DNA of 64,000 nucleotides from Chlamydiota bacterium (GTDB lineage Bacteria > Chlamydiota > Chlamydiia > Chlamydiales > JABDDJ01). The translations under genes and the position numbers were made by a program. Below, in pieces: positions 2,343 to 37,933 of this stretch. The notes under the pieces were generated by a model. It had not been told where the DNA came from, ran no database searches, and worked only from the letters and a program-made list of their open reading frames with translations. The stretch lies in NCBI GenBank assembly GCA_013287645.1, contig JABDDJ010000004.1, forward strand, positions 1,815 to 65,814. The letters run 5' to 3'. Every line of letters begins with the position of its first letter. Position 1 is the stretch's first letter.

Positions 2343-4124
2343 TTATTCTAGCATTGCCGTGATGTGTTGGTACTGTTCACGGTAAGTGTCACTCTTCCAA
2401 GCGATAAAGTTCATATTTTTGATCGCATTTTGCAACTTTAGGAAGTATTCTCGCGCCTGATCGTGCGTTTCAAATTGGAATGTATGTTCAAAAATACGGT
2501 CAATGATTTTAAAGAGTTCTATCTGTCTCTGTAATGGGCAGTAGGCGTCTTCTTTATCGAAAGCGTTCTGCTGGAGGTAGCTGAAGTCGTAGAGCTCTGC
2601 TTTGAGGTAGACAATAAAGTCTGAAAGGGCGGTACCCTCCTCCCCTACAACCTCCATGCGTTTGGCGATCTCGTTTCCTTTTCGGAGGATATCTGCAGCA
2701 CGCTGGACTTTTTGACCCCATCCCTTAAAGAGATGATCGAGTTCGTGGCCTACTCTCAGAGTATAGGAAGACCAGGAGATAAGTGGGTCAATGGAGGGAT
2801 AGCGTCGAGAGTCTGAACGTTCTCTCGATAGTCCCAAGAAGGCCCCTACGACTGATAATGTGGCCTGTGTGACGGGCTCTTCAAAGTTACCTCCAGCTGG
2901 CGAGACAGCTCCACCGATGGTGATAGAACCTGTTCGGCCATCGCGTAGGGAGATCACTCCAGACCGTTCGTAGAACTCGGCGATGCGCGATGCTAAATAG
3001 GCTGGAAAGGCCTCTTCGCCAGGAATTTCTTCAAGCCGGCCCGACATTTCGCGCATAGCCTGCGCCCATCTAGAGGTAGAGTCTGCCAGTAAAAGGACGT
3101 CTAGACCCATTTGTCGATAGTATTCGGCGATGGTAATACCCATATAGACCGAAGAGTCTCGCGCTGCCACAGGCATGGAGGAGGTATTGCAAATGATGAC
3201 GGTGCGCGCCATGAGTGATTTGTTGGTGTGTGGGTCGATCAGGTGCGGAAACTCGCGCAGTACTTCAACAACTTCACCAGCACGCTCACCACAGGCAACA
3301 ACGACGACGATATCTACATCGGAGTATTTGGAGAGGTGATGCTGGAGAACTGTTTTACCCGCTCCAAAGGGTCCTGGAGTACAGAATGTTCCTCCTTTCA
3401 TGATCGGGAATTGAGTGTCGAGGATGCGAAGGCCTGTGTCCATCATCTTGATGGGCTTTGTCTTTTCGCCCTCTTGCATGCTGTTTTTGATCGGCCAGCG
3501 CTGGACCATGGTAAAGGAGTGTTCATGGCCGGCTTCGTCGGTGGCTTTGGCTACAACAGTGTCGATGGTATAGGAGCCTGGCGCGACAACCCATGTAAGT
3601 TTGTAGGTTCCGTAGAGGCTGAAGGGAATCATGATGCGATGGTGAAAACGCCCTTCTAGGGTTGTTCCAATGGTATCTCCACGTCTTAGTTCTTCATCCA
3701 CCTTTGCTGTGGGCAGATAGTCCCAACGATGAGTGCGGTCTAAGGGAGGAAGGTAGATGCCTCGTGGCAGGAAAAACCCGGCTTTTTCAGCAACCTCTTC
3801 AAGAGGGTTTTGCAGGCCGTCGAGAATGGAGCTAAGAAGTCCTGGGCCTAGTTCAGCCTCGAGAAGTTCTCCAGTGAAGTGAACAGGCGTGCCAAAACCT
3901 ACTCCACGGGTGTCTTCGAACACTTGTATCTTAGCGAAATTACCTGTGATTTCAATGACTTCCGCTTTGAGTTGGAGGCCGTCAACCTCGACCATAGCGA
4001 CTTCGCCTTGGCGGATATTGTCTTCAAATTCAACCAAAAGAAGGTTTCCGAATGCAGTGACTACCCTGCCTTTAGCATGGGAGTGTTTCTCTATATCTGA
4101 GTGTTCTTCAATGGCTTGTTTCAT
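2343..4124 (-). CDS. atpA: V-type ATP synthase subunit A
   Basis: Walker A GPFGAGKT, CGERAGE, ADSTSRWAQA and PGEEAFPAYL motifs. Confidence 0.97.
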   Translation of the reverse strand: MKQAIEEHSDIEKHSHAKGRVVTAFGNLLLVEFEDNIRQGEVAMVEVDGLQLKAEVIEITGNFAKIQVFEDTRGVGFGTPVHFTGELLEAELGPGLLSSILDGLQNPLEEVAEKAGFFLPRGIYLPPLDRTHRWDYLPTAKVDEELRRGDTIGTTLEGRFHHRIMIPFSLYGTYKLTWVVAPGSYTIDTVVAKATDEAGHEHSFTMVQRWPIKNSMQEGEKTKPIKMMDTGLRILDTQFPIMKGGTFCTPGPFGAGKTVLQHHLSKYSDVDIVVVVACGERAGEVVEVLREFPHLIDPHTNKSLMARTVIICNTSSMPVAARDSSVYMGITIAEYYRQMGLDVLLLADSTSRWAQAMREMSGRLEEIPGEEAFPAYLASRIAEFYERSGVISLRDGRTGSITIGGAVSPAGGNFEEPVTQATLSVVGAFLGLSRERSDSRRYPSIDPLISWSSYTLRVGHELDHLFKGWGQKVQRAADILRKGNEIAKRMEVVGEEGTALSDFIVYLKAELYDFSYLQQNAFDKEDAYCPLQRQIELFKIIDRIFEHTFQFETHDQAREYFLKLQNAIKNMNFIAWKSDTYREQYQHITAMLE

Positions 4125-4900
4125 AGAGGTTCCTTCACAAGTGTGTCGACAAATTCTAGGCCTTTTTGTTTATCAAGCTCAAACCATTTTTCTAGGGCAC
4201 TGAGCTGTGCCATGTAGCCGAGAATGCGATCGATGGAAAATAGGTCGACGCCTAGAATATCCTCAATCCTATAGAAATTCCAGTTTAAGAGTGCTTGCAT
4301 AAGCCCTAGAGGGTTATCTTTATGTTCTTCGTAGAGTGTTTTTAAGTCTTCAAAGCCATCTGGTGGTTCGATGGAAGAGGCATCTTTCTGAACAATGAGT
4401 TGTGCAACGATAGGGTCGTTGGGGTCTTCGAATTGAAGCTCTTTCAGAAGGTCGCGTCCGAGATCTTTAGCTCTGAGCGCAGCGAGGATGAGGCGCCAAT
4501 GGTGGTTAAATTCTAGAAATTCGTGTAAAAATCCTTTTGCATTAGCGCTTTCATGTTTGAAGTATGCAGAAAAAAGTTCGGAGAAGTTTTGAAGACGTTC
4601 TTGGGCAGAGTCATATTTGTGAAGAAAATCAAAAATATATTGAGGAACGCCATTAAAGCCATGCAGGGCTTCATCCAGCTGCTGCTGAGTCATATTTCCA
4701 TGAGATTGAAAAGGATCGCCTTTGAGCATGCAGCGGATGTTAAGCACATCGTAGAAGCGGCGTAAGATTTTGACTTTTTCCAAATCTTTTGAGGACAGGT
4801 TGACCTCGAGCAAAAACATGAGCTCATCAAAAGAGATCTCGGGCGGTGTCCCCATTTGCAAAGGGGGCAGCGCTGTAGCGACAAAGTAGTAGCGAGCCAT
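4121..4900 (-). CDS. DUF2764 family protein (chlamydial V-ATPase-associated, subunit C-like)
   Basis: MxxYYFVxxxLPPL N-terminus; sits between subunits E and A as in Chlamydiae. Confidence 0.8.
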   Translation of the reverse strand: MARYYFVATALPPLQMGTPPEISFDELMFLLEVNLSSKDLEKVKILRRFYDVLNIRCMLKGDPFQSHGNMTQQQLDEALHGFNGVPQYIFDFLHKYDSAQERLQNFSELFSAYFKHESANAKGFLHEFLEFNHHWRLILAALRAKDLGRDLLKELQFEDPNDPIVAQLIVQKDASSIEPPDGFEDLKTLYEEHKDNPLGLMQALLNWNFYRIEDILGVDLFSIDRILGYMAQLSALEKWFELDKQKGLEFVDTLVKEPL

Positions 4901-4913
4901 GGGCTATACTAAC

Positions 4914-5549
4914 CTAGTTAGCAAAAATTAACGAACGGAACTCTTTTTGGAGGAATTCGGCAAGGATGTTTTTAGCGTCGTCTAGAGTTAAAGAGACGCT
5001 CATATTTTTGTCCTTTAAGCTTACTTTAGCTCCTCCAGCAAAACTGCCTACCTCTATCGAATGTTTTTTAAGTCTATCAAGAATGCGAGAGGCAATCAGT
5101 TTGTTGACCTCTTCAGGGTTAATATTTTTTGCTGCTTCAGCACGAAGGTCAACGGCAAGACCGTCTTTATCAATGGCTTTAATCAGTGCTTCAATGATAT
5201 GTACGATCATCATGGGGTCTGACATAGGACCTTGCAGAAGCTGATAGAGCTCATCATTAAAAATTTTTGTTTCAAGCTGTTGCTTAAAGTTCTCAACAGC
5301 TTGCTTTGTAGCTTGAAGCAGAGAGGATTCGAACACATTGTGTTCTTGCTCAATTTGAGCACGGCCCTCTTCGATGAGGCGCTCTTTTTCTTTGCGCCCC
5401 TCGTTAATGAGATCTTGCTTTTGCTTTTCGCCCTCTTCACGTAGACGTTGAGCTTCTTGCTTAGCAGGTTCTAAGGTATCTTTACGGATGGCATCACAAA
5501 TTCTCTGGATGCGAGTTTTACCATCTTCAAGAGTCTTCATAAATGCCAC
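4914..5549 (-). CDS. atpE: V-type ATP synthase subunit E
   Basis: KIQxICDxxRxxTLEPAK-like N-terminal coiled coil; first gene of the operon. Start could be ATG 5540. Confidence 0.88.
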   Translation of the reverse strand: MAFMKTLEDGKTRIQRICDAIRKDTLEPAKQEAQRLREEGEKQKQDLINEGRKEKERLIEEGRAQIEQEHNVFESSLLQATKQAVENFKQQLETKIFNDELYQLLQGPMSDPMMIVHIIEALIKAIDKDGLAVDLRAEAAKNINPEEVNKLIASRILDRLKKHSIEVGSFAGGAKVSLKDKNMSVSLTLDDAKNILAEFLQKEFRSLIFAN

Positions 5550-31471: not shown

Positions 31472-31534
31472 GTTGTTCACACATATTTTGTTTTTTAATC
31501 TGGGTGGTGTATCGGGAAGAGTCTTAGAGTAGTT

Positions 31535-31618
31535 TGCGAAAGGGGGGACTTGAACCCCCACAAGGTTTCCCTCACTACCACCTCAAGGTAGCGCGTATAC
31601 CAATTCCGCCACTTTCGC
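31535..31618 (-). tRNA. tRNA-Leu(GAG)
   Basis: GCGAAAGTGGCGGAATTGGTATACGCG-CTACC-TTGAGGT-GGTAG, long variable arm, GTTCAAG. Confidence 0.96.
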
Positions 31619-31654
31619 ACAATCACGTGCGGAAATATAGCACTCTTGAGATTC

Positions 31655-32263: not shown

Positions 32264-32312
32264 TGAGAAAAATCTCCCGAATCCATTATCTTACTCGTTT
32301 AACTAATTCTCT

Positions 32313-32386
32313 GCACCGATAGCTCAATAGGATAGAGTACCCGGCTTCGAACCGGGTGGTTAGAGGTTCGAGCCCTCTTCGGTGCG
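32313..32386 (+). tRNA. tRNA-Arg(TCG)
   Basis: GCACCGATAGCTCAATAGGATAGAGTA-CCCGG-CTTCGAA-CCGGG...GTTCGAG...TCGGTGCG. Confidence 0.96.
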
Positions 32387-32480
32387 ATATTTCTTCACTC
32401 TCCTTGCCATTTATTTCTTACTCAGCAGATAATAAATGTGTGTTCCAGTATAAAAACTCTTTTAATCTTATGAGGAATCT

Positions 32481-33134
32481 ATGAGCCGCAAAGCAAAAGC
32501 TGCAGAGTTTGTAAACGAAAGTTATGACATTACTGTCACAGGGCGCCACGTGTTGATTACTGACGCCATGAAAAATTACGCCATAGAAAAAATCTCACGC
32601 ATAGACCGCCTTACCGACCGCATCTTAGAAGTCATTGTTACCATGGATATCCAGAAAATCGAACAACATGTCGATATCCTTCTTAAAGTAGACCACTTTA
32701 AAATTAGAAGCAGCGCCAGCAGCAACGACATGTATGTCTCTATTGACATGGCAGTCGATAAGTTAGAGAAGCAGCTCCTACGCTATAAAGACAAAATGCT
32801 TGACGAAAGACAGCGTGGTAGATCCCTAGGTGTAGTAGACATGAATGTCAACGTCCTAAAACCTGCTAGAGATAATGATCTCGTTGAGATTAACGAAGAT
32901 ATTGAATATGAAAACAGCCGCGAACTCGTAGAGAAATACAGCCCACACCGCATTGTCGCGCGTGAGGTACACTCTCTAAAAATGTTTAGCTACGACGAAG
33001 CCATCCTCCATATGGATCTCTCAGGAGACGCCTTCCTCATTTTTAAAACTATGGAAAATGAGCTCAAAGTCATTTATCGCCGCACCGATGGCAATTATGG
33101 AATCATAGAACCAGAAAATGTCTCAGGCCGATAA
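32481..33134 (+). CDS. hpf: Ribosome hibernation factor (long HPF/RaiA)
   Basis: ITVTGRH...DMYVSIDMAVDKLEKQL; C-terminal domain EAILHM...VIYRR.DGNYGIIEP. Confidence 0.93.
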   Translation: MSRKAKAAEFVNESYDITVTGRHVLITDAMKNYAIEKISRIDRLTDRILEVIVTMDIQKIEQHVDILLKVDHFKIRSSASSNDMYVSIDMAVDKLEKQLLRYKDKMLDERQRGRSLGVVDMNVNVLKPARDNDLVEINEDIEYENSRELVEKYSPHRIVAREVHSLKMFSYDEAILHMDLSGDAFLIFKTMENELKVIYRRTDGNYGIIEPENVSGR

Positions 33135-33549
33135 ACTTTTTTGCCTTGTAAGGCGCAGCTGGATTAAGGCAACTCCCGAGGAAAAACTGCGCCAGGCTGT
33201 CCTCCATTTTATGTTCGATAAAGGGAGTTATCCCAATGGACTTGTTGCCCTTGAGATGCTTCCCAGCAAAACATCGCCCCTAAGACGAGCAGATATCGTT
33301 AGCTACTGGAAAAATTCGACCGGAAGTATAGCGCCGCTCATCGTTGTAGAGTGTAAAGCCGAGAAACTCACTCCACAGGCCATTCTGCAGGCAGGAGGTT
33401 ATAATTACTATTTAGAAGCCCCCTTTATAGCACTCGCCTGCCCCCAAGAGAGCTTTTGGGGCTGGTTTGATCATTCAAAAAAATCCTATGCCTTCCAGCC
33501 AGGATTTCCAACATACCCACAATTACTCACACTCCTCAATCAAGCATGA
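33118..33549 (+). CDS. Stand-alone HsdR N-terminal-like PD-(D/E)xK domain protein
   Basis: TPEEKLRQ, RADIV, VVECKA and QAxxYN motifs. Confidence 0.8.
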   Translation: MSQADKLFCLVRRSWIKATPEEKLRQAVLHFMFDKGSYPNGLVALEMLPSKTSPLRRADIVSYWKNSTGSIAPLIVVECKAEKLTPQAILQAGGYNYYLEAPFIALACPQESFWGWFDHSKKSYAFQPGFPTYPQLLTLLNQA

Positions 33550-34226
33550 ACCCATTAAAAGATAAATCACACTATCCCATTACCGTAGACAGCGTCATTT
33601 TTGGTTATGCTGAAGGAAAGCTCTACGTCGCACTCATTGAACGGAAAATAGACCCCTTTAAGGGCATGTGGGCTATTCCAGGCGGATTTATGGAGGACGA
33701 TGAGACTGCAGAAGAGACAGCCCTACGCGAACTTCAGGAAGAGACCGGCTTAGAAAACATATTTCTAGAACAGTTTCATGTCTTTAGCGAGTTAGGGAGA
33801 GATCCTAGAGGACGCACTATCACAGTAGCGTTTTTTGCCTTAATCAATTCAGACAATTACCATTTAGTCGCCTCATCCGATGCAGCAGCAGCTAAGTGGT
33901 GGCCAACGTATCAGATACCCCCTCTAGCCTTTCAACAAGAGATCATTTATTCCAAAGCACTCAGCGCTCTCCGTCTTGCAATGAAAACAAGGCCCCTTGC
34001 ATTCGAATTGCTTCCAAAAGAGTTTACACTTACTCAACTACAACAACTCTATGAACAAGTGTACAATATAAAGATTGATACCAGAAATTTTCGCCGCAAG
34101 GTTGGTAAGATGGAATTTATCCGCGCTAGTGGGAAAAAGCAAGAGGGTGAAAAGCATCGCCCGGCGATGCTTTATCACTATGATCCAGCACTTTACAAAG
34201 AGTTTTCCAAAGAAAACTTCTTTTAG
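33546..34226 (+). CDS. nrtR: NrtR Nudix-related transcriptional regulator
   Basis: TVDSVIF, complete Nudix box GFMEDDETAEETALRELQEETGL, RDPRGR, C-terminal wHTH FTLTQLQQLYE..NFRRK..RPAMLY. Confidence 0.92.
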   Translation: MNPLKDKSHYPITVDSVIFGYAEGKLYVALIERKIDPFKGMWAIPGGFMEDDETAEETALRELQEETGLENIFLEQFHVFSELGRDPRGRTITVAFFALINSDNYHLVASSDAAAAKWWPTYQIPPLAFQQEIIYSKALSALRLAMKTRPLAFELLPKEFTLTQLQQLYEQVYNIKIDTRNFRRKVGKMEFIRASGKKQEGEKHRPAMLYHYDPALYKEFSKENFF

Positions 34227-34243
34227 TTGTAAAATAAAAATAC

Positions 34244-34678
34244 TTATTCATACCAATAATTTACTTCAAAAGGCCCTAAAACATCTTCTCCACGCATAAT
34301 ATAAACCAGGTAAAATTGGTTATACATGTTGATAGTAGTAGTATTATTTTCAAAATAAATAATATCACCAGGAAAAAAAACAAAGGCAACATACTGTGAA
34401 AGTTTGCTAGGATAACCCATCCAATTTGTAAACGTAAATGAACCTGATATAATAATTGTTTGCTTATCTGTAGTCTCCAAACGATACACCGCTTTCCCAT
34501 CCCCTGAACTCCAGCCAGAGTGATAACCATTTGGGCCCGTAACCATCCAACCAGGCTGAGTAACATGTCGTTCTAACTCTTTCACTTTAGAGATCTGTTT
34601 TAAGTCGTGCGCATCTGCATGCAACGAAAAACCAATGAAACATAGTGAACAAATAAAAATTTGGTATAAACAATGCAC
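34244..34678 (-). CDS. Small exported hypothetical protein
   Basis: Signal peptide ending ADA; 20 bp downstream of the phosphatase, so likely co-transcribed. Confidence 0.65.
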   Translation of the reverse strand: MHCLYQIFICSLCFIGFSLHADAHDLKQISKVKELERHVTQPGWMVTGPNGYHSGWSSGDGKAVYRLETTDKQTIIISGSFTFTNWMGYPSKLSQYVAFVFFPGDIIYFENNTTTINMYNQFYLVYIMRGEDVLGPFEVNYWYE

Positions 34679-34697
34679 TTTTTCTCCCTATTATTTT

Positions 34698-35378
34698 TTA
34701 GTTGTAAGTATCGTATACGATATCAGGTGAAGTCTCAACAAGAGTCAGATTTTCACCATCAAAAATATACTTTACATAGGCCATATTACTCATCGCAATA
34801 GATTCATGAATCGCGTCTGTGTGCATCGCAATAATCGCCTTTAAAATGCCGCTATGGCTTACAGCTACGATCGTGCCGCCGGCATGCTTTTTTGCTAGCG
34901 TAGATAACTCTTTTTCGGCATTAGCAGTGATTCTTTCAAGACTCATTAATCCCTCATAATCCCCTACTTTGCGTCTCTCTTCTTGCGACAAGGCATTCAA
35001 GCGTGAATCGATCAAGGCGTGCACGTTATCAGCATGCATACCTTCTAAGGGACCGAGGTGGTGCTCAATCAAGCCCATCCGAGGAATAGCTAATTTTTCA
35101 TGAGCAGCAGCAATGATTTGCGCAGTCAGATAGGCACGTTGTAAAGGGCTGGTGTAAATGGCCTCTACTTTCATGTCTTTAAAAAATTTAGCTTTTTCAG
35201 CAGCTTGTTGCACACCGTCGATATTTAAAGTTGTGTCGGTAGTTCCTTGCCATAATTTTTTAGCATTCCAATGGGTTTGGCCATGGCGCGTTAAATAAAC
35301 TGTAGTGGGTTCAGCTGCATAGCATACTTGAAATAACACTACGCATAGTAAGGTAAATATTAATTTATGAATTTTCAT
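34698..35378 (-). CDS. Exported histidine phosphatase (PGM/CobC-like)
   Basis: Signal peptide MKIHKLIFTLLCVVLFQVCYA; RHGQTHWN, SPLQRA and VSHSG motifs. Confidence 0.9.
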   Translation of the reverse strand: MKIHKLIFTLLCVVLFQVCYAAEPTTVYLTRHGQTHWNAKKLWQGTTDTTLNIDGVQQAAEKAKFFKDMKVEAIYTSPLQRAYLTAQIIAAAHEKLAIPRMGLIEHHLGPLEGMHADNVHALIDSRLNALSQEERRKVGDYEGLMSLERITANAEKELSTLAKKHAGGTIVAVSHSGILKAIIAMHTDAIHESIAMSNMAYVKYIFDGENLTLVETSPDIVYDTYN

Positions 35379-35399
35379 ACTTCTCCGATTTTGTGATAG

Positions 35400-35420
35400 T
35401 TATTGTTAATACGACAATAA
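35400..35420. promoter_or_regulatory. NrtR-type operator 1 (over the -10/start site of the phosphatase promoter)
   Basis: TTATTGT-taatacg-ACAATAA (GT-N7-AC core); minus-strand promoter TTGACA-N18-TATCTT at 35448-35419. Confidence 0.8.
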
Positions 35421-35467
35421 GATAGCATTTACCCGCTTTTTTTGTCAAATCCTCTCTTTTTCTTGAC

Positions 35468-35488
35468 TTATTGTCGCTTACACAATAT
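35468..35488. promoter_or_regulatory. NrtR-type operator 2 (in the spacer of the NTT promoter)
   Basis: TTATTGT-cgcttac-ACAATAT inside TTGACT-N17-TATCAT (35463-35491). Confidence 0.8.
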
Positions 35489-35497
35489 CATAAACCC

Positions 35498-36832
35498 ATG
35501 CAAGTTAACGAAAATCGTAAAAAACTCATTTCGATGCTGATCATTTTTTTTCTGCTCAGCTTCAACATGTCTCTTTTATGGAACTTAAAAGATTCTTTGA
35601 TCATCACGACTGCAGGTGCAGAAATCATTCCCTTCATCAAAGTATGGGTACTGCTGCCTGCTACACTCATTTTGACTTTTCTTTACACTTTTCTATCTAA
35701 TCGCCTCAGTCAAGAAAAAGTCTTTTATCTTCTAACCAGTTTCTTTTTGATTTTCTATGCCCTATTTATTACCCTACTCTACCCCTATCGCGATCAGCTC
35801 CATCCAGAGGATTCTGCAATCTATCTTGAAAATTTATTACCCACTGGCTTTAAAGGATTAATTTCAGTTTACCACTACTGGACGTTCACACTTTTCTATG
35901 TCATGTCAGAACTTTGGAGCACTATTCTCATCTATCTTCTCTTTTGGGGATTTGCTAACCAGATAACACAGATTAATGAAGCCAAGCGCTCTTATAGCTT
36001 GCTTAGCATAGCCTATAATATTACACCGATAGCCGCTGGAGGAATATCCCTAGCCATTGCAGAAGAGACTTGGGAGCCAACCTTTAACTTGTTGATGATT
36101 GTCATCATTGTCAGCGGACTACTCACAATGGTCACATTTCGCTGGATGCACAAAAATGTTCCCTTTACCAGAATTACGTTTGATAAAAAGATCTCACTCA
36201 CTGAAAGCTTCAAATGCATTACCAAATCAAAAGCGTTGATTTGCATTGCAGGCATAGTTTTGGGATATAATTTAGTCATTAATCTCACTGAAATCGTATG
36301 GAAAGACCAGTTAAAGAACTTATATCCACATACTTTAGATTATAATAACTATATAAGTTACCTACAGATAGCTCAAGGCGTGGTTGCTTTATTTATTTCA
36401 TTGATTCTGTCAAAACTGATCACTCAACACGGCTGGACAAAAACAGCATTAATAACACCTATACTGATGCTGCTACTATGCCTCTCTTTTTTTGGAACGC
36501 TCTTCCTTCAGTTCCCTCTAACGCTTGTTGTTATAATGGGCGCCATCCATAATTTTATGAGTAAAGCCAGTAAATATACCCTTTTTGATTGTACAAAAGA
36601 GATGGCCTTTATTCCATTTAGCCCTGAAACAAAGCATAAAGGCAAAATCGCGATTGATGGAGTAGGTTCACGTCTTGGTAAGTCAGGAGGCTCTTTTATA
36701 CATCAAAGCCTACTGATACTCTTAGCTTCAATTGGCGCCAGCGCTCCCTATGTCGCTGGAATTGTGCTTATAGTGCTTCTTATTTGGATTGCTTCTGTGT
36801 ATAGCTTAGGAAAGCTGATCAAAGTCGCTTAA
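35498..36832 (+). CDS. NTT/Npt (TLC family) nucleotide transporter
   Basis: KDSLIIT..GAEIIPFIKVWV, FYVMSELW, FWGFANQIT, EIVWK, KYTLFD.TKEMAFIP, GKIAIDGVGSRLGKSGG motifs; about 12 TM helices. Start ATG 35498. Confidence 0.93.
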   Translation: MQVNENRKKLISMLIIFFLLSFNMSLLWNLKDSLIITTAGAEIIPFIKVWVLLPATLILTFLYTFLSNRLSQEKVFYLLTSFFLIFYALFITLLYPYRDQLHPEDSAIYLENLLPTGFKGLISVYHYWTFTLFYVMSELWSTILIYLLFWGFANQITQINEAKRSYSLLSIAYNITPIAAGGISLAIAEETWEPTFNLLMIVIIVSGLLTMVTFRWMHKNVPFTRITFDKKISLTESFKCITKSKALICIAGIVLGYNLVINLTEIVWKDQLKNLYPHTLDYNNYISYLQIAQGVVALFISLILSKLITQHGWTKTALITPILMLLLCLSFFGTLFLQFPLTLVVIMGAIHNFMSKASKYTLFDCTKEMAFIPFSPETKHKGKIAIDGVGSRLGKSGGSFIHQSLLILLASIGASAPYVAGIVLIVLLIWIASVYSLGKLIKVA

Positions 36833-37933
36833 TTTTGCTTGAGAGATGTAGGTATTGTCAGGACCCGGAGTGAGAATTCCAGTATTTACTTTTTCTGCTA
36901 ATTTACCTTCATAAATTCCCTTAACACCGCTAGATCCCCAAGTAATCGGTTTAAAGGCATATTGAGAGACAAGTGCAAATGAATCATCTTCACGTTTCTC
37001 AATTGCTTTTAAAATAAAAGCACGAAAACTTAAGTAATCTACAACGTTAACATCGATATTAGATCTAAATTCGATTTTGTGTTGATCTGGCAGATAATCG
37101 AATTCAATTTTTTTACCTCCTGTATATTGTAAAGTAGTTTCAGGGGTAACTCTTTTAATTGCCAAATCCTTTGTGAATGTAATTTCGAAATGGTTCCCAT
37201 TTTTTGTAATACTTTGAATGTCTGCAGAAATGGGAGTTAATAATTTATTTAAGAATTCGGGTAAAATCTTATCTTCTTGTGGAAAATAGCCCAAGATATC
37301 GTTTAAATGTGTAGTATTAGCGCTTTCGGGAATTGTTGGTGCAGAGGATGTTTGAGGTACTTCTTCACTTAAAGCATCTTCATAGTCCGAATAATCATAA
37401 ACATCGTCAATATCTTGCTCTTCTTCTTTGGCCTTCTCTGGAACTTCTTCAGGCGGCTTAGTTTTTTCGGGCTCCACTATCAAAAAGGAATCTTCATGAA
37501 TGTCTTTTAAACGATTAATCCTATCCTCTATGGTGCTAAGCGCTTTTTCTCTTGAATGAACGAAGCCAAAACCCATTCCTCCAGTTAAACGTGATTTGTC
37601 AGCTAATTTTGATAATAGTTTTTTACCAAAGTAGAATGATGATTTATCGCCTTCAATCGCTTGTTTAGTTAGATCTTTGGATTCATTGATAGAGTCTTTT
37701 ATTTTATTTAATATCTCTTCAGCTTTTTTCAATTGAGCGGGAGACATCTCGTCCCTAGTTAATAGATCTAATCTTTGCACAAGGGCCTTTGCATAAATTT
37801 TTGTTACTGTGTTAGTTTTTTCATCTACATAAGTAAATTCTCTGGAATAGCTATTTCCAACTACCTTCATATTATTTACAATTTCAGATAGCTGATTTAA
37901 ATCACTATTATACACTGGATCGTTAATTTGCAT
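36806..37933 (-). CDS. Hypothetical protein, AT-rich, candidate secreted effector
   Basis: 375 aa with acidic/Pro linker, no recognised domain; 3' end overlaps the NTT 3' end by 27 bp. Confidence 0.65.
   Translation of the reverse strand: MQINDPVYNSDLNQLSEIVNNMKVVGNSYSREFTYVDEKTNTVTKIYAKALVQRLDLLTRDEMSPAQLKKAEEILNKIKDSINESKDLTKQAIEGDKSSFYFGKKLLSKLADKSRLTGGMGFGFVHSREKALSTIEDRINRLKDIHEDSFLIVEPEKTKPPEEVPEKAKEEEQDIDDVYDYSDYEDALSEEVPQTSSAPTIPESANTTHLNDILGYFPQEDKILPEFLNKLLTPISADIQSITKNGNHFEITFTKDLAIKRVTPETTLQYTGGKKIEFDYLPDQHKIEFRSNIDVNVVDYLSFRAFILKAIEKREDDSFALVSQYAFKPITWGSSGVKGIYEGKLAEKVNTGILTPGPDNTYISQAKLSDFDQLS

Follow-up and report, generated by a model that had tools for sequence, protein, structure and literature searches.

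Putative NrtR control of a divergent phosphatase and NTT carrier gene pair in an environmental chlamydia-like bacterium

The window analyzed here, a stretch of 64,000 nucleotides from contig JABDDJ010000004.1 of a Chlamydiota bacterium (assembly GCA_013287645.1, positions 1,815 to 65,814, forward strand), contains an nrtR gene, two palindromic boxes and a divergent gene pair for an exported histidine phosphatase and an NTT carrier. This environmental chlamydia-like bacterium appears to place the gene of one of its carriers for host-nucleotide import, the NTT, together with the exported phosphatase gene under a repressor of the NrtR family that senses a metabolite. NrtR control of the divergent phosphatase/NTT pair, as put forward in the original prediction, is well supported by the comparison of sequences: the boxed layout recurs elsewhere, the regulators and carriers concerned fall into two clades, and the operator base changes along with residue 179 of the regulator. 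What the sequences themselves show are these features, the layout that is conserved, both clades and the co-variation of residue and base. The source genome (G000) is a 2.53-Mb assembly, 72.8% complete, and the reading at the DNA level covers three loci, the window and two loci here called L109 and L172. The features of the window locus are the following (aa, amino acids; ORF, open reading frame).

33546-34226, forward strand: nrtR, 226-aa regulator with Nudix and winged-helix domains
34244-34678, reverse strand: 144-aa ORF with hydrophobic N-terminus and no known family, separated by 19 bp from the upstream phosphatase gene
34698-35378, reverse strand: histidine phosphatase (branch 1), 226 aa, N-terminal signal-peptide-like segment, RHG and SHSG motifs
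35400-35420: operator 1, TTATTGT-TAATACG-ACAATAA, arms complementary at 7/7 positions, a perfect palindrome
35419-35448, reverse strand: predicted leftward promoter, TTGACA (35448), spacing 18, TATCTT (end 35419), consensus match 10/12
35463-35491, forward strand: predicted rightward promoter, TTGACT (35463), spacing 17, TATCAT (end 35491), consensus match 10/12
35468-35488: operator 2, TTATTGT-CGCTTAC-ACAATAT, arms complementary at 6/7 positions
35498-36832, forward strand: NTT/TLC carrier, 444 aa, "W-type" branch

The boxed divergent gap and its recurrence

A gap of 119 bp separates the start codon of the leftward phosphatase ORF (ATG, 35378) from that of the rightward NTT ORF (ATG, 35498). 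Reading of this gap together with a pattern search confirmed the two 21-bp palindromes that had been claimed for a divergent gap of about 120 bp, and both sites have the GT-N7-AC core and lie at the predicted promoters of the proposed targets. Palindromes of this length and core have been reported for most NrtR groups (Rodionov 2008, PMC2330246). The 3' end of nrtR is situated 1.17 kb from operator 1, in agreement with the distance of about 1.2 kb given earlier, and the gene was confirmed as one with NUDIX and NrtR_WHD domains. A terminator or an RNA element was rejected as an explanation of the boxes, since they are placed between divergent starts and fit the class of protein-binding palindromes.

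In the consensus scan operator 1 overlaps the predicted leftward -10 element at its end, together with the start region, and operator 2 occupies the spacer of the predicted rightward promoter. This agrees with the placement originally given to both palindromes, though the scan itself was not significant. The NTT mRNA may be leaderless, with a predicted start site at about 35498, on the ATG, because the ATG comes about 7 bases after the predicted -10 element. Where the NTT ORF has a second in-frame ATG, at 35534, the relatives have a Met that is nearly invariant (alignment A1).

When at most one mismatch was allowed, operators 1 and 2 were the sole matches in the whole assembly, while the reversed control pattern gave five matches per strand in the same assembly. 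The relaxed pattern (at most two mismatches) produced five strand-matches in the window where 2.05 were expected, a number that 11 of 100 shuffles also reached in their counts of five. It is the pairing of the two boxes, not the number of sites, that departs from chance: none of 41 permuted half-site palindromes gave two sites within 150 bp in the source genome, and exact sites averaged 0.05 per genome. A weight-matrix scan of the genome resulted in five hits of at least 14 bits, including operator 1 as the top hit of the genome (19.3 bits) and operator 2 (14.6 bits). Long ORFs contained the remaining three hits, of which one lay close to the 3' end of its ORF, some 60-100 bp upstream of the ORF that follows.

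In one of the best 80 NTT loci of the species-representative genomes (L109), the NTT gene has an NrtR gene (78% identical) and a His_Phos_1 gene for neighbours; no locus of P. amoebophila was among these 80. The best 80 metagenome NrtR loci likewise included one close relative (L172, 78% identical) with an NTT gene beside it; the next-best locus was 51% identical, and no other of these best 80 had an NTT gene. These two loci and a further boxed ORF found in G404, the genome of L109, are composed as follows.

L109: nrtR 2168-2845; His_Phos_1 gene 3654-2842; boxes at 3658, 3721 and 3784; NTT gene 3902-5374
L172: nrtR 1413-2093; Ppx/GppA-like gene 3052-2090; boxes at 3078 and 3140; NTT gene 3230-4687
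L312:3393-7160 (G404:C4): fusion ORF, 1255 aa, His_Phos_1 and three tandem Ppx/GppA-like domains; box TTCGTGT-N7-ACACTAA 17 bp upstream

The order given for L109 and L172 in comparison with the window is shared by all three loci that carry this NrtR subclade: nrtR rightward, a leftward phosphatase-type gene ending at the nrtR stop, a boxed gap, and the NTT gene rightward. The boxes are spaced by 63 bp in L109 (three boxes), 62 bp in L172 (two boxes) and 68 bp in the window (two boxes). The boxes of L109 and L172 differ in sequence and keep the palindrome, and they are the sole hits of at least 9 bits in those loci. Conservation of the palindromes at orthologous gaps, on which the original prediction had been made to depend, was thus found in both loci. 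No box was present upstream of nrtR itself in the window, L109 or L172, unlike in the NrtR regulons of Shewanella oneidensis and Synechocystis.

The box of the fusion ORF was the only other strong box in G404 in a genome-wide search; a weaker hit with one mismatch, at C5:99943, scored below 13 bits. The His_Phos_1 domain of the fusion ORF is 55% identical to the L109 phosphatase, and its Ppx/GppA-like domains are 35% identical to the L172 partner. The boxed fusion ties the two partner types together and points to the phosphatase as a core target. Within its family of 103 genomes, only G404 carries the NTT-linked NrtR type. Using equal contig size as a proxy for a shared contig, 7 of the 23 other W-type NTT clusters had a longest contig equal in size to that of an NrtR subclade cluster.

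The NrtR regulator, its operator base and its pocket

The regulator of the window has the domain composition of the family, an N-terminal Nudix-like domain (Pfam NUDIX, 67.6 bits, residues 15-126) and a C-terminal winged-helix domain (NrtR_WHD, 86.9 bits, residues 152-211), both above the cut-off. Its Nudix box, G-x5-E-x7-REUxEExGU, is intact and its recognition helix reads DTRNFRRK. The best solved relative was BtAraR of Bacteroides thetaiotaomicron (5bs6, E 8e-45, aligned residues 10-219), and SoNrtR (3gz5) matched with 1.4e-29 (aligned residues 12-214). In the tree of 13 chlamydial NrtRs and two outgroups, the regulators of the window, L109 and L172 formed one clade (support 100/98).

The recognition helix is nearly identical to that of BtAraR (DKRNFRK; 5bs6/5dd4), which reads GTGT by means of Lys179, Asn181 and Lys184, Lys179 being hydrogen-bonded to N7 and O6 of the motif's first G (PMC4666351). 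The HMMER alignment places D178-T179-R180-N181-F182-R183-R184 of the window NrtR on D-K-R-N-F-R-K of BtAraR, and the regulators thus differ at residue 179, which is Thr in the window protein and Lys in BtAraR. Lys179 is present in all 11 other aligned chlamydial NrtRs, whose boxes have GTGT, in L109 and L172 as well, while both window operators read TTGT in both half-sites. The residue and the operator base accordingly co-vary, from Lys179/G to Thr179/T, in a single instance. In our view this ties the boxes to this particular NrtR, residue 179 changing along with the base that it should contact. The other six of the seven half-site positions of the window are those of the TTAGTGT consensus of chlamydial nrtR genes.

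Among the 120 closest database NrtRs, 71 have a DKRNFRKK helix together with Asp-His at positions 130-131, and about 45 have an xRNFRRK helix together with x-Gln at the same positions, the latter group being the subclade of the window protein. Residue 179 varies within this subclade of about 45 members (Lys 23, Thr 11, Ile 9, Asn 1, Ser 1). Of the 120 best clusters in each family, subclade signatures were found in about 45 for NrtR and in 24 for the NTT, the carrier's own cluster counted. The module is rare in species-representative genomes and seems to be common among uncultured chlamydiae.

Of the residues that contact ADP-ribose in SoNrtR, which include Arg98 (Gly89 in BtAraR), Arg41 and Lys76 (PMC4666351), the first has its counterpart in Arg88 of the window NrtR, invariant in the chlamydial set. 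Arg33 is at the position of Arg41, both Arg33 and Arg85 being kept, and Glu66 is at the position of Lys76 and belongs to the intact Nudix box, which is also intact in 114 of 120 close homologs. BtAraR senses L-arabinose and has its nucleotide cleft filled by Gly89, Leu67 and Phe36; the window NrtR differs in having Arg88, Glu66 and Ile35 in their place, and a nucleotide is therefore expected to fit. The ADP-ribose sensing proposed originally is plausible as far as Arg88 and the intact Nudix box are concerned. It is not secure, since His131, a sugar/ligand contact common to BtAraR and SoNrtR, is replaced by Gln in the window protein and across its subclade. An intact Nudix box accompanies real ADP-ribose pyrophosphatase activity in one member of the family (Rodionov 2008, PMC2330246), and by this precedent the window NrtR may also cleave its ligand.

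Full-length NrtR orthologs were detected in 13 of 399 other sampled Chlamydiota genomes, and neither G001, of the same genus, nor G002, of the same family, yielded an ortholog. At 11 of these 13 nrtR loci (L038-L068) a box near TTAGTGT-N7-ACACTAA is present within about 140 bp upstream of nrtR; of the two boxless loci one is cut at the nrtR 5' end and the other is a 41%-identity relative. Pattern searches across ten of these genomes detected essentially only the site upstream of nrtR. Ten neighbours of the 13 loci were annotated: two with DUF952 (one of them with DUF2608), a phosphoribosyl pyrophosphate (PRPP) synthetase, an NTPase_I-T/phosphoribosyltransferase fusion, two GFO/IDH/MocA oxidoreductases, a zinc-type dehydrogenase, a methyltransferase, one with nothing beyond sub-threshold MauE/DoxX matches, and one without a family. 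No NAD-synthesis gene was among these annotated neighbours. Neither this NTT nor this phosphatase was beside nrtR in any of the 13 loci; in one of them an NTT paralog (33% identical) is present at a distance of about 8 kb. The commoner chlamydial NrtR type has the look of a small regulon for ADP-ribose and PRPP, of which no description was found in the literature searched.

Upstream of nrtR in the window, an hpf-like ORF (32481-33134, named from a reading of its translation alone) and an HSDR_N_2 ORF (33118-33549) overlap by 17 bases, and the stop of the latter is overlapped by 4 bases by the start of nrtR. Because of these overlapping ends nrtR looks co-transcribed with a ribosome-hibernation-type gene. 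A tRNA-Arg (32312-32387) and a tRNA-Leu (31534-31619, reverse strand) are situated just upstream of this run.

The NTT carrier and its phosphatase partners

The carrier matches the TLC profile over its full length and above the curated cut-offs (Pfam TLC, PF03219, 476.6 bits; TIGR00769, 448.8 bits vs a cut-off of 387.2). It shares this match with the canonical chlamydial NTTs, represented by the solved ADP,ATP carrier 9j3n ("ADP,ATP carrier protein 1"; E 8.5e-103), and differs from them in a Trp in place of the helix-1 Arg and in the NrtR boxes before its gene. It is also shorter than its relatives, being without about 15-20 N-terminal residues and three loop stretches (alignment A1).

The NTT tree has 118 rows: the source genome and five other genomes contributed their paralogs (four full-length ones in the source genome), to which the 80 loci and 14 database proteins were added. 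All three carriers linked to NrtR were placed within one clade of 15 rows with full support (Shimodaira-Hasegawa-like approximate likelihood ratio test, SH-aLRT, 100). This clade was in turn nested, with a support of 99, among the canonical chlamydial NTTs, in a large clade. Members of the large clade are one of the tandem NTT pair of the source genome and a carrier whose record bears the title Candidatus Protochlamydia sp. The window carrier is 54% identical to the L172 carrier, 49% to the L109 carrier, and 46%, 44% and 40% to the three canonical paralogs of its own genome. The Trp (Trp28) before the invariant Lys-Asp of helix 1 was present in 14 of 14 clade members, compared to Arg in 92% of 101 other NTTs. 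Four residues before this Trp, 13 of the 14 clade members have Gln for Tyr, and the window NTT has Met. The W type accounted for 24 of the 120 best database matches, again with the own cluster counted.

A very divergent NTT type was observed in G001 (G001:C9:112431-113720, L270), with 157.8 bits to TLC and 26% identity to the window carrier. The N-terminal part of such a divergent NTT is present at a contig end of the source genome (G000:C22:6-182) and is 56% identical to the G001 copy. This type could be of the PamNTT4-like kind. A protein search with the G001 sequence resulted in 13 proteins with no informative name, the sole named row being its own cluster, "AAA family ATP:ADP antiporter". 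Downstream of the window carrier, the NTT gene is met by a converging 375-aa ORF (36806-37933, reverse strand) that matched neither Pfam nor NCBIfam; the two share 27 bases at the end of the NTT gene.

The phosphatase belongs to branch 1 of the histidine phosphatases by its profile match (Pfam His_Phos_1, PF00300, 133.5 bits, profile positions 1-189 of 194), its RHG motif and its second His. All its NCBIfam matches were below the cut-off, the best being alpha-ribazole phosphatase (81 vs 162.9 bits), and the best match in the PDB was of the PhoE type (1ebb/1h2e). The L109 partner, a His_Phos_1 protein with a signal-peptide-like start, is 32% identical to the window phosphatase, which is its only match in G000, and the L172 partner is Ppx/GppA-like with no evident signal peptide. 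Judged from these sequences, the phosphatase partner is conserved, as a His_Phos_1 protein, a Ppx/GppA-like protein, or both fused in one relative. Homologs of His_Phos_1 (E at most 1e-15) occur in 40 of 399 other genomes of the phylum, all with at most 36% identity. None of 29 such loci checked had an NrtR box of at least 13 bits, and one of the 29 had an NTT paralog (29% identical) nearby.

The 144-aa ORF is probably co-transcribed with the phosphatase gene. It had no Pfam or NCBIfam family, the Atlas leads were weak (best 0.86) and the structural template modeling scores were below 0.45. As no counterpart of this ORF is present in L109 or L172, the protein was dropped as a part of the module, and the small exported protein included in the original prediction was not borne out.

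The proposed switch and the question of cargo

The reading that we regard as rather probable is that of a repressor-gated import module, in which NrtR would control the carrier and the phosphatase together; its binding to the boxes, the repression, the effector and the cargo are what we infer. According to this reading, an NrtR dimer would bind the two 21-bp operators between two diverging transcription units, the leftward one consisting of the exported histidine phosphatase gene followed by the 144-aa ORF and the rightward one of the NTT carrier gene. One bound NrtR pair would shut both promoters, because operator 1 covers the leftward -10/start and operator 2 the rightward -35/-10 spacer. 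A nucleotide effector of the ADP-ribose type, accommodated in the Nudix pocket, would then release the repressor, after which the carrier and the phosphatase would be made together.

The proposed module resembles the NrtR regulons of Shewanella oneidensis and Synechocystis (PMC2330246) in its Nudix and winged-helix repressor, in its 21-bp GT-N7-AC operators overlapping promoter elements, and in a nucleotide pocket with an ADP-ribose-contacting Arg, and it resembles the Shewanella nrtR-prs arrangement (PMC2330246) in the two sites within a regulator-adjacent gap. It differs from these regulons in its targets, which are an NTT and phosphatases and not genes of NAD synthesis or salvage. The two NrtRs tested in Rodionov 2008 have a degenerate Nudix box, unlike the window protein with its intact box and with Gln for His131. 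PamNTT4, the NAD+/ADP antiporter of Protochlamydia amoebophila (Haferkamp 2004, as cited in PMC5381601, PMC1951785 and PMC6171736), is likewise a carrier of the NTT family, in an amoeba-associated chlamydia, and its import of a cofactor instead of an energy nucleotide is the role that the NrtR link suggests here. PamNTT4 is placed outside the canonical NTT clade (PMC5381601) and described as highly divergent (PMC6171736), while the window carrier is within the clade, the two being compared by the published descriptions and not by sequence.

In Haemophilus, periplasmic NAD processing by e(P4) and NadN reportedly feeds PnuC. The likeness to the module as proposed here is in an exported phosphatase that readies an NAD-family nucleotide for an inner-membrane carrier. 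The differences are in the histidine phosphatase fold, e(P4) being said to be a class C acid phosphatase, and in the carrier family. We know of no NrtR control of the Haemophilus system.

Several observations weigh against the module as proposed. With 2 sites in the promoter scan where shuffles gave an expectation of 1.5, the hexamers alone are without significance, and the same consensus scan found no comparably placed promoters in L109 or L172. The genome-wide count of boxes was no higher than that of the control pattern. The nearest solved relative of the regulator is the arabinose sensor BtAraR and not SoNrtR, and its score to the NCBIfam equivalog of the ADP-ribose-responsive repressor (NF050029) was 125.8 bits against a cut-off of 400 bits; by this score it is to be taken as a family member and not as an equivalog of the curated protein. 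To these are added the Gln at position 131 and the segments missing from the NTT, which might impair the carrier. Against NAD as the cargo, more specifically, speak the nadD gene of the source genome (168.9 bits, above the cut-off), accompanied by a weak NAPRTase-like match, the nesting of the carrier among the canonical NTTs, its closest kin being canonical paralogs, and the start of the divergent second NTT type in the same genome.

With nadD and the weak NAPRTase-like match in the genome, the NAD auxotrophy behind the claimed scavenging was not borne out. No strong nadE match was found in the 72.8%-complete source assembly, and nadE is present in G001, G216 and G404. The weight-matrix scan found no NrtR box before the NAD genes of the source genome. 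In G404 a nadD match below the cut-off (G404:C5:369238-369790) contains an in-frame TGA and may represent a broken gene or an assembly error. The NTT tree placed the carrier within the canonical radiation (40-46% identical to the paralogs); since PamNTT4 is described as lying outside it, the "NAD-type" designation is not supported by descent. The NrtR link is then the sole remaining pointer to a cargo of the NAD family or to another ADP-linked cargo. NAD(P) or another host ADP-linked cofactor would be our best guess of the cargo, the phosphatase taking off a phosphate before the uptake or after it, a guess that would miss more often than it would hit.

The rival explanations concern mainly this cargo. 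The palindromes could in principle have arisen by chance or serve another regulator, the nearby nrtR being coincidental, and this would be in line with the control-level number of sites in the genome, with the lack of enrichment of the relaxed pattern in the window, and with the position of nrtR in a separate transcription unit, overlapping the upstream HSDR_N_2 ORF. It is nevertheless highly improbable, as a pair within 68 bp was unmatched by 41 of 41 permuted motifs, the gene trio is accompanied by NrtR-type boxes in two other loci, six of the seven half-site positions are those of the consensus upstream of 11 of 13 chlamydial nrtR genes, and the seventh changes along with the residue that reads it. 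The original model appears unlikely, in which an exported phosphatase (NADP to NAD) and an exported small helper protein feed a PamNTT4-like NAD+ carrier and the module is induced as NAD turnover raises ADP-ribose. NrtR control itself was supported, the phosphatase has a signal-peptide-like N-terminus in the window and L109, and even a canonical NTT, Npt1 of C. trachomatis, is cited as carrying NAD (PMC5381601, PMC6171736). The model is weakened by the carrier not having the outlying position described for PamNTT4, by the small protein missing from L109 and L172, by the Ppx/GppA-like L172 partner with no evident signal peptide, by the presence of nadD, and by the phosphatase family matches all remaining below their cut-offs.

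Two further explanations keep the NrtR switch, and we take each to be less likely than not. The switch may act on ordinary cargo, the W-type NTT carrying, as do its nearest paralogs, a standard nucleotide such as ATP, UTP or GTP, the phosphatases (His_Phos_1, Ppx/GppA-like) trimming nucleotides and the ADP-ribose-type signal reporting the economy of ribose-phosphate or nucleotides and not the need for NAD. The position of the carrier inside the canonical NTT radiation, with its identities of 46%, 44% and 40% to the other three NTTs of the genome, fits this explanation. So do the neighbours of the 13 other chlamydial nrtR loci, with a PRPP synthetase, a phosphoribosyltransferase fusion and DUF952 and with no NAD-synthesis gene among those annotated, the action of Ppx/GppA-type enzymes on 5'-polyphosphate ends (as taken from the family names), and the retention of nadD. 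Ordinary cargo is less easily reconciled with the mostly NAD-related nature of NrtR regulons, nrtR genes being linked to NAD genes in 42 of 62 cases (Rodionov 2008, PMC2330246), with the three canonical carriers that the genome already has, and with the Trp found in 14 of 14 W-type members for an Arg held in 92% of the others, a swap that speaks for changed specificity. Alternatively, the W-type NTTs might be a new substrate class carrying host ADP-linked cofactors (NAD(P)+, possibly dephospho-CoA or FAD), gated by a Nudix sensor with a re-tuned pocket (His131 to Gln), while the exported or fused phosphatases would pre-process the cofactor. This cofactor explanation, taken jointly with a natural recognition code that residue 179 (Lys, Thr or Ile) and the fourth half-site base would form, is put forward as a conjecture that we would not expect to hold in full.

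The original remark that no NrtR regulation of an NTT is described agrees with the literature searched, in which no NrtR-NTT link was found, Rodionov 2008 included; most subscription papers and RegPrecise were outside that search. The combinations of NrtR with amoebophila and with "nucleotide transporter" gave no match in it. NrtR together with Chlamydia gave no relevant link, one paper containing both terms in unrelated sections in the part available.

Chlamydiae have few transcription factors, and to our knowledge no NTT gene has been assigned a regulator. If the repressor-gated import module is correct, it would provide a simple repressor/operator pair for a gene of host-nucleotide import, and a new NTT branch whose regulon membership hints at a substrate that sequence likeness cannot predict. 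It would also be a natural case of a regulator and its operator changing together at one contact, from Lys179/G to Thr179/T. If, in addition, the cofactor explanation of the W-type carriers were true, the module would be the first described metabolite-responsive transcriptional switch for host-metabolite piracy in Chlamydiota.

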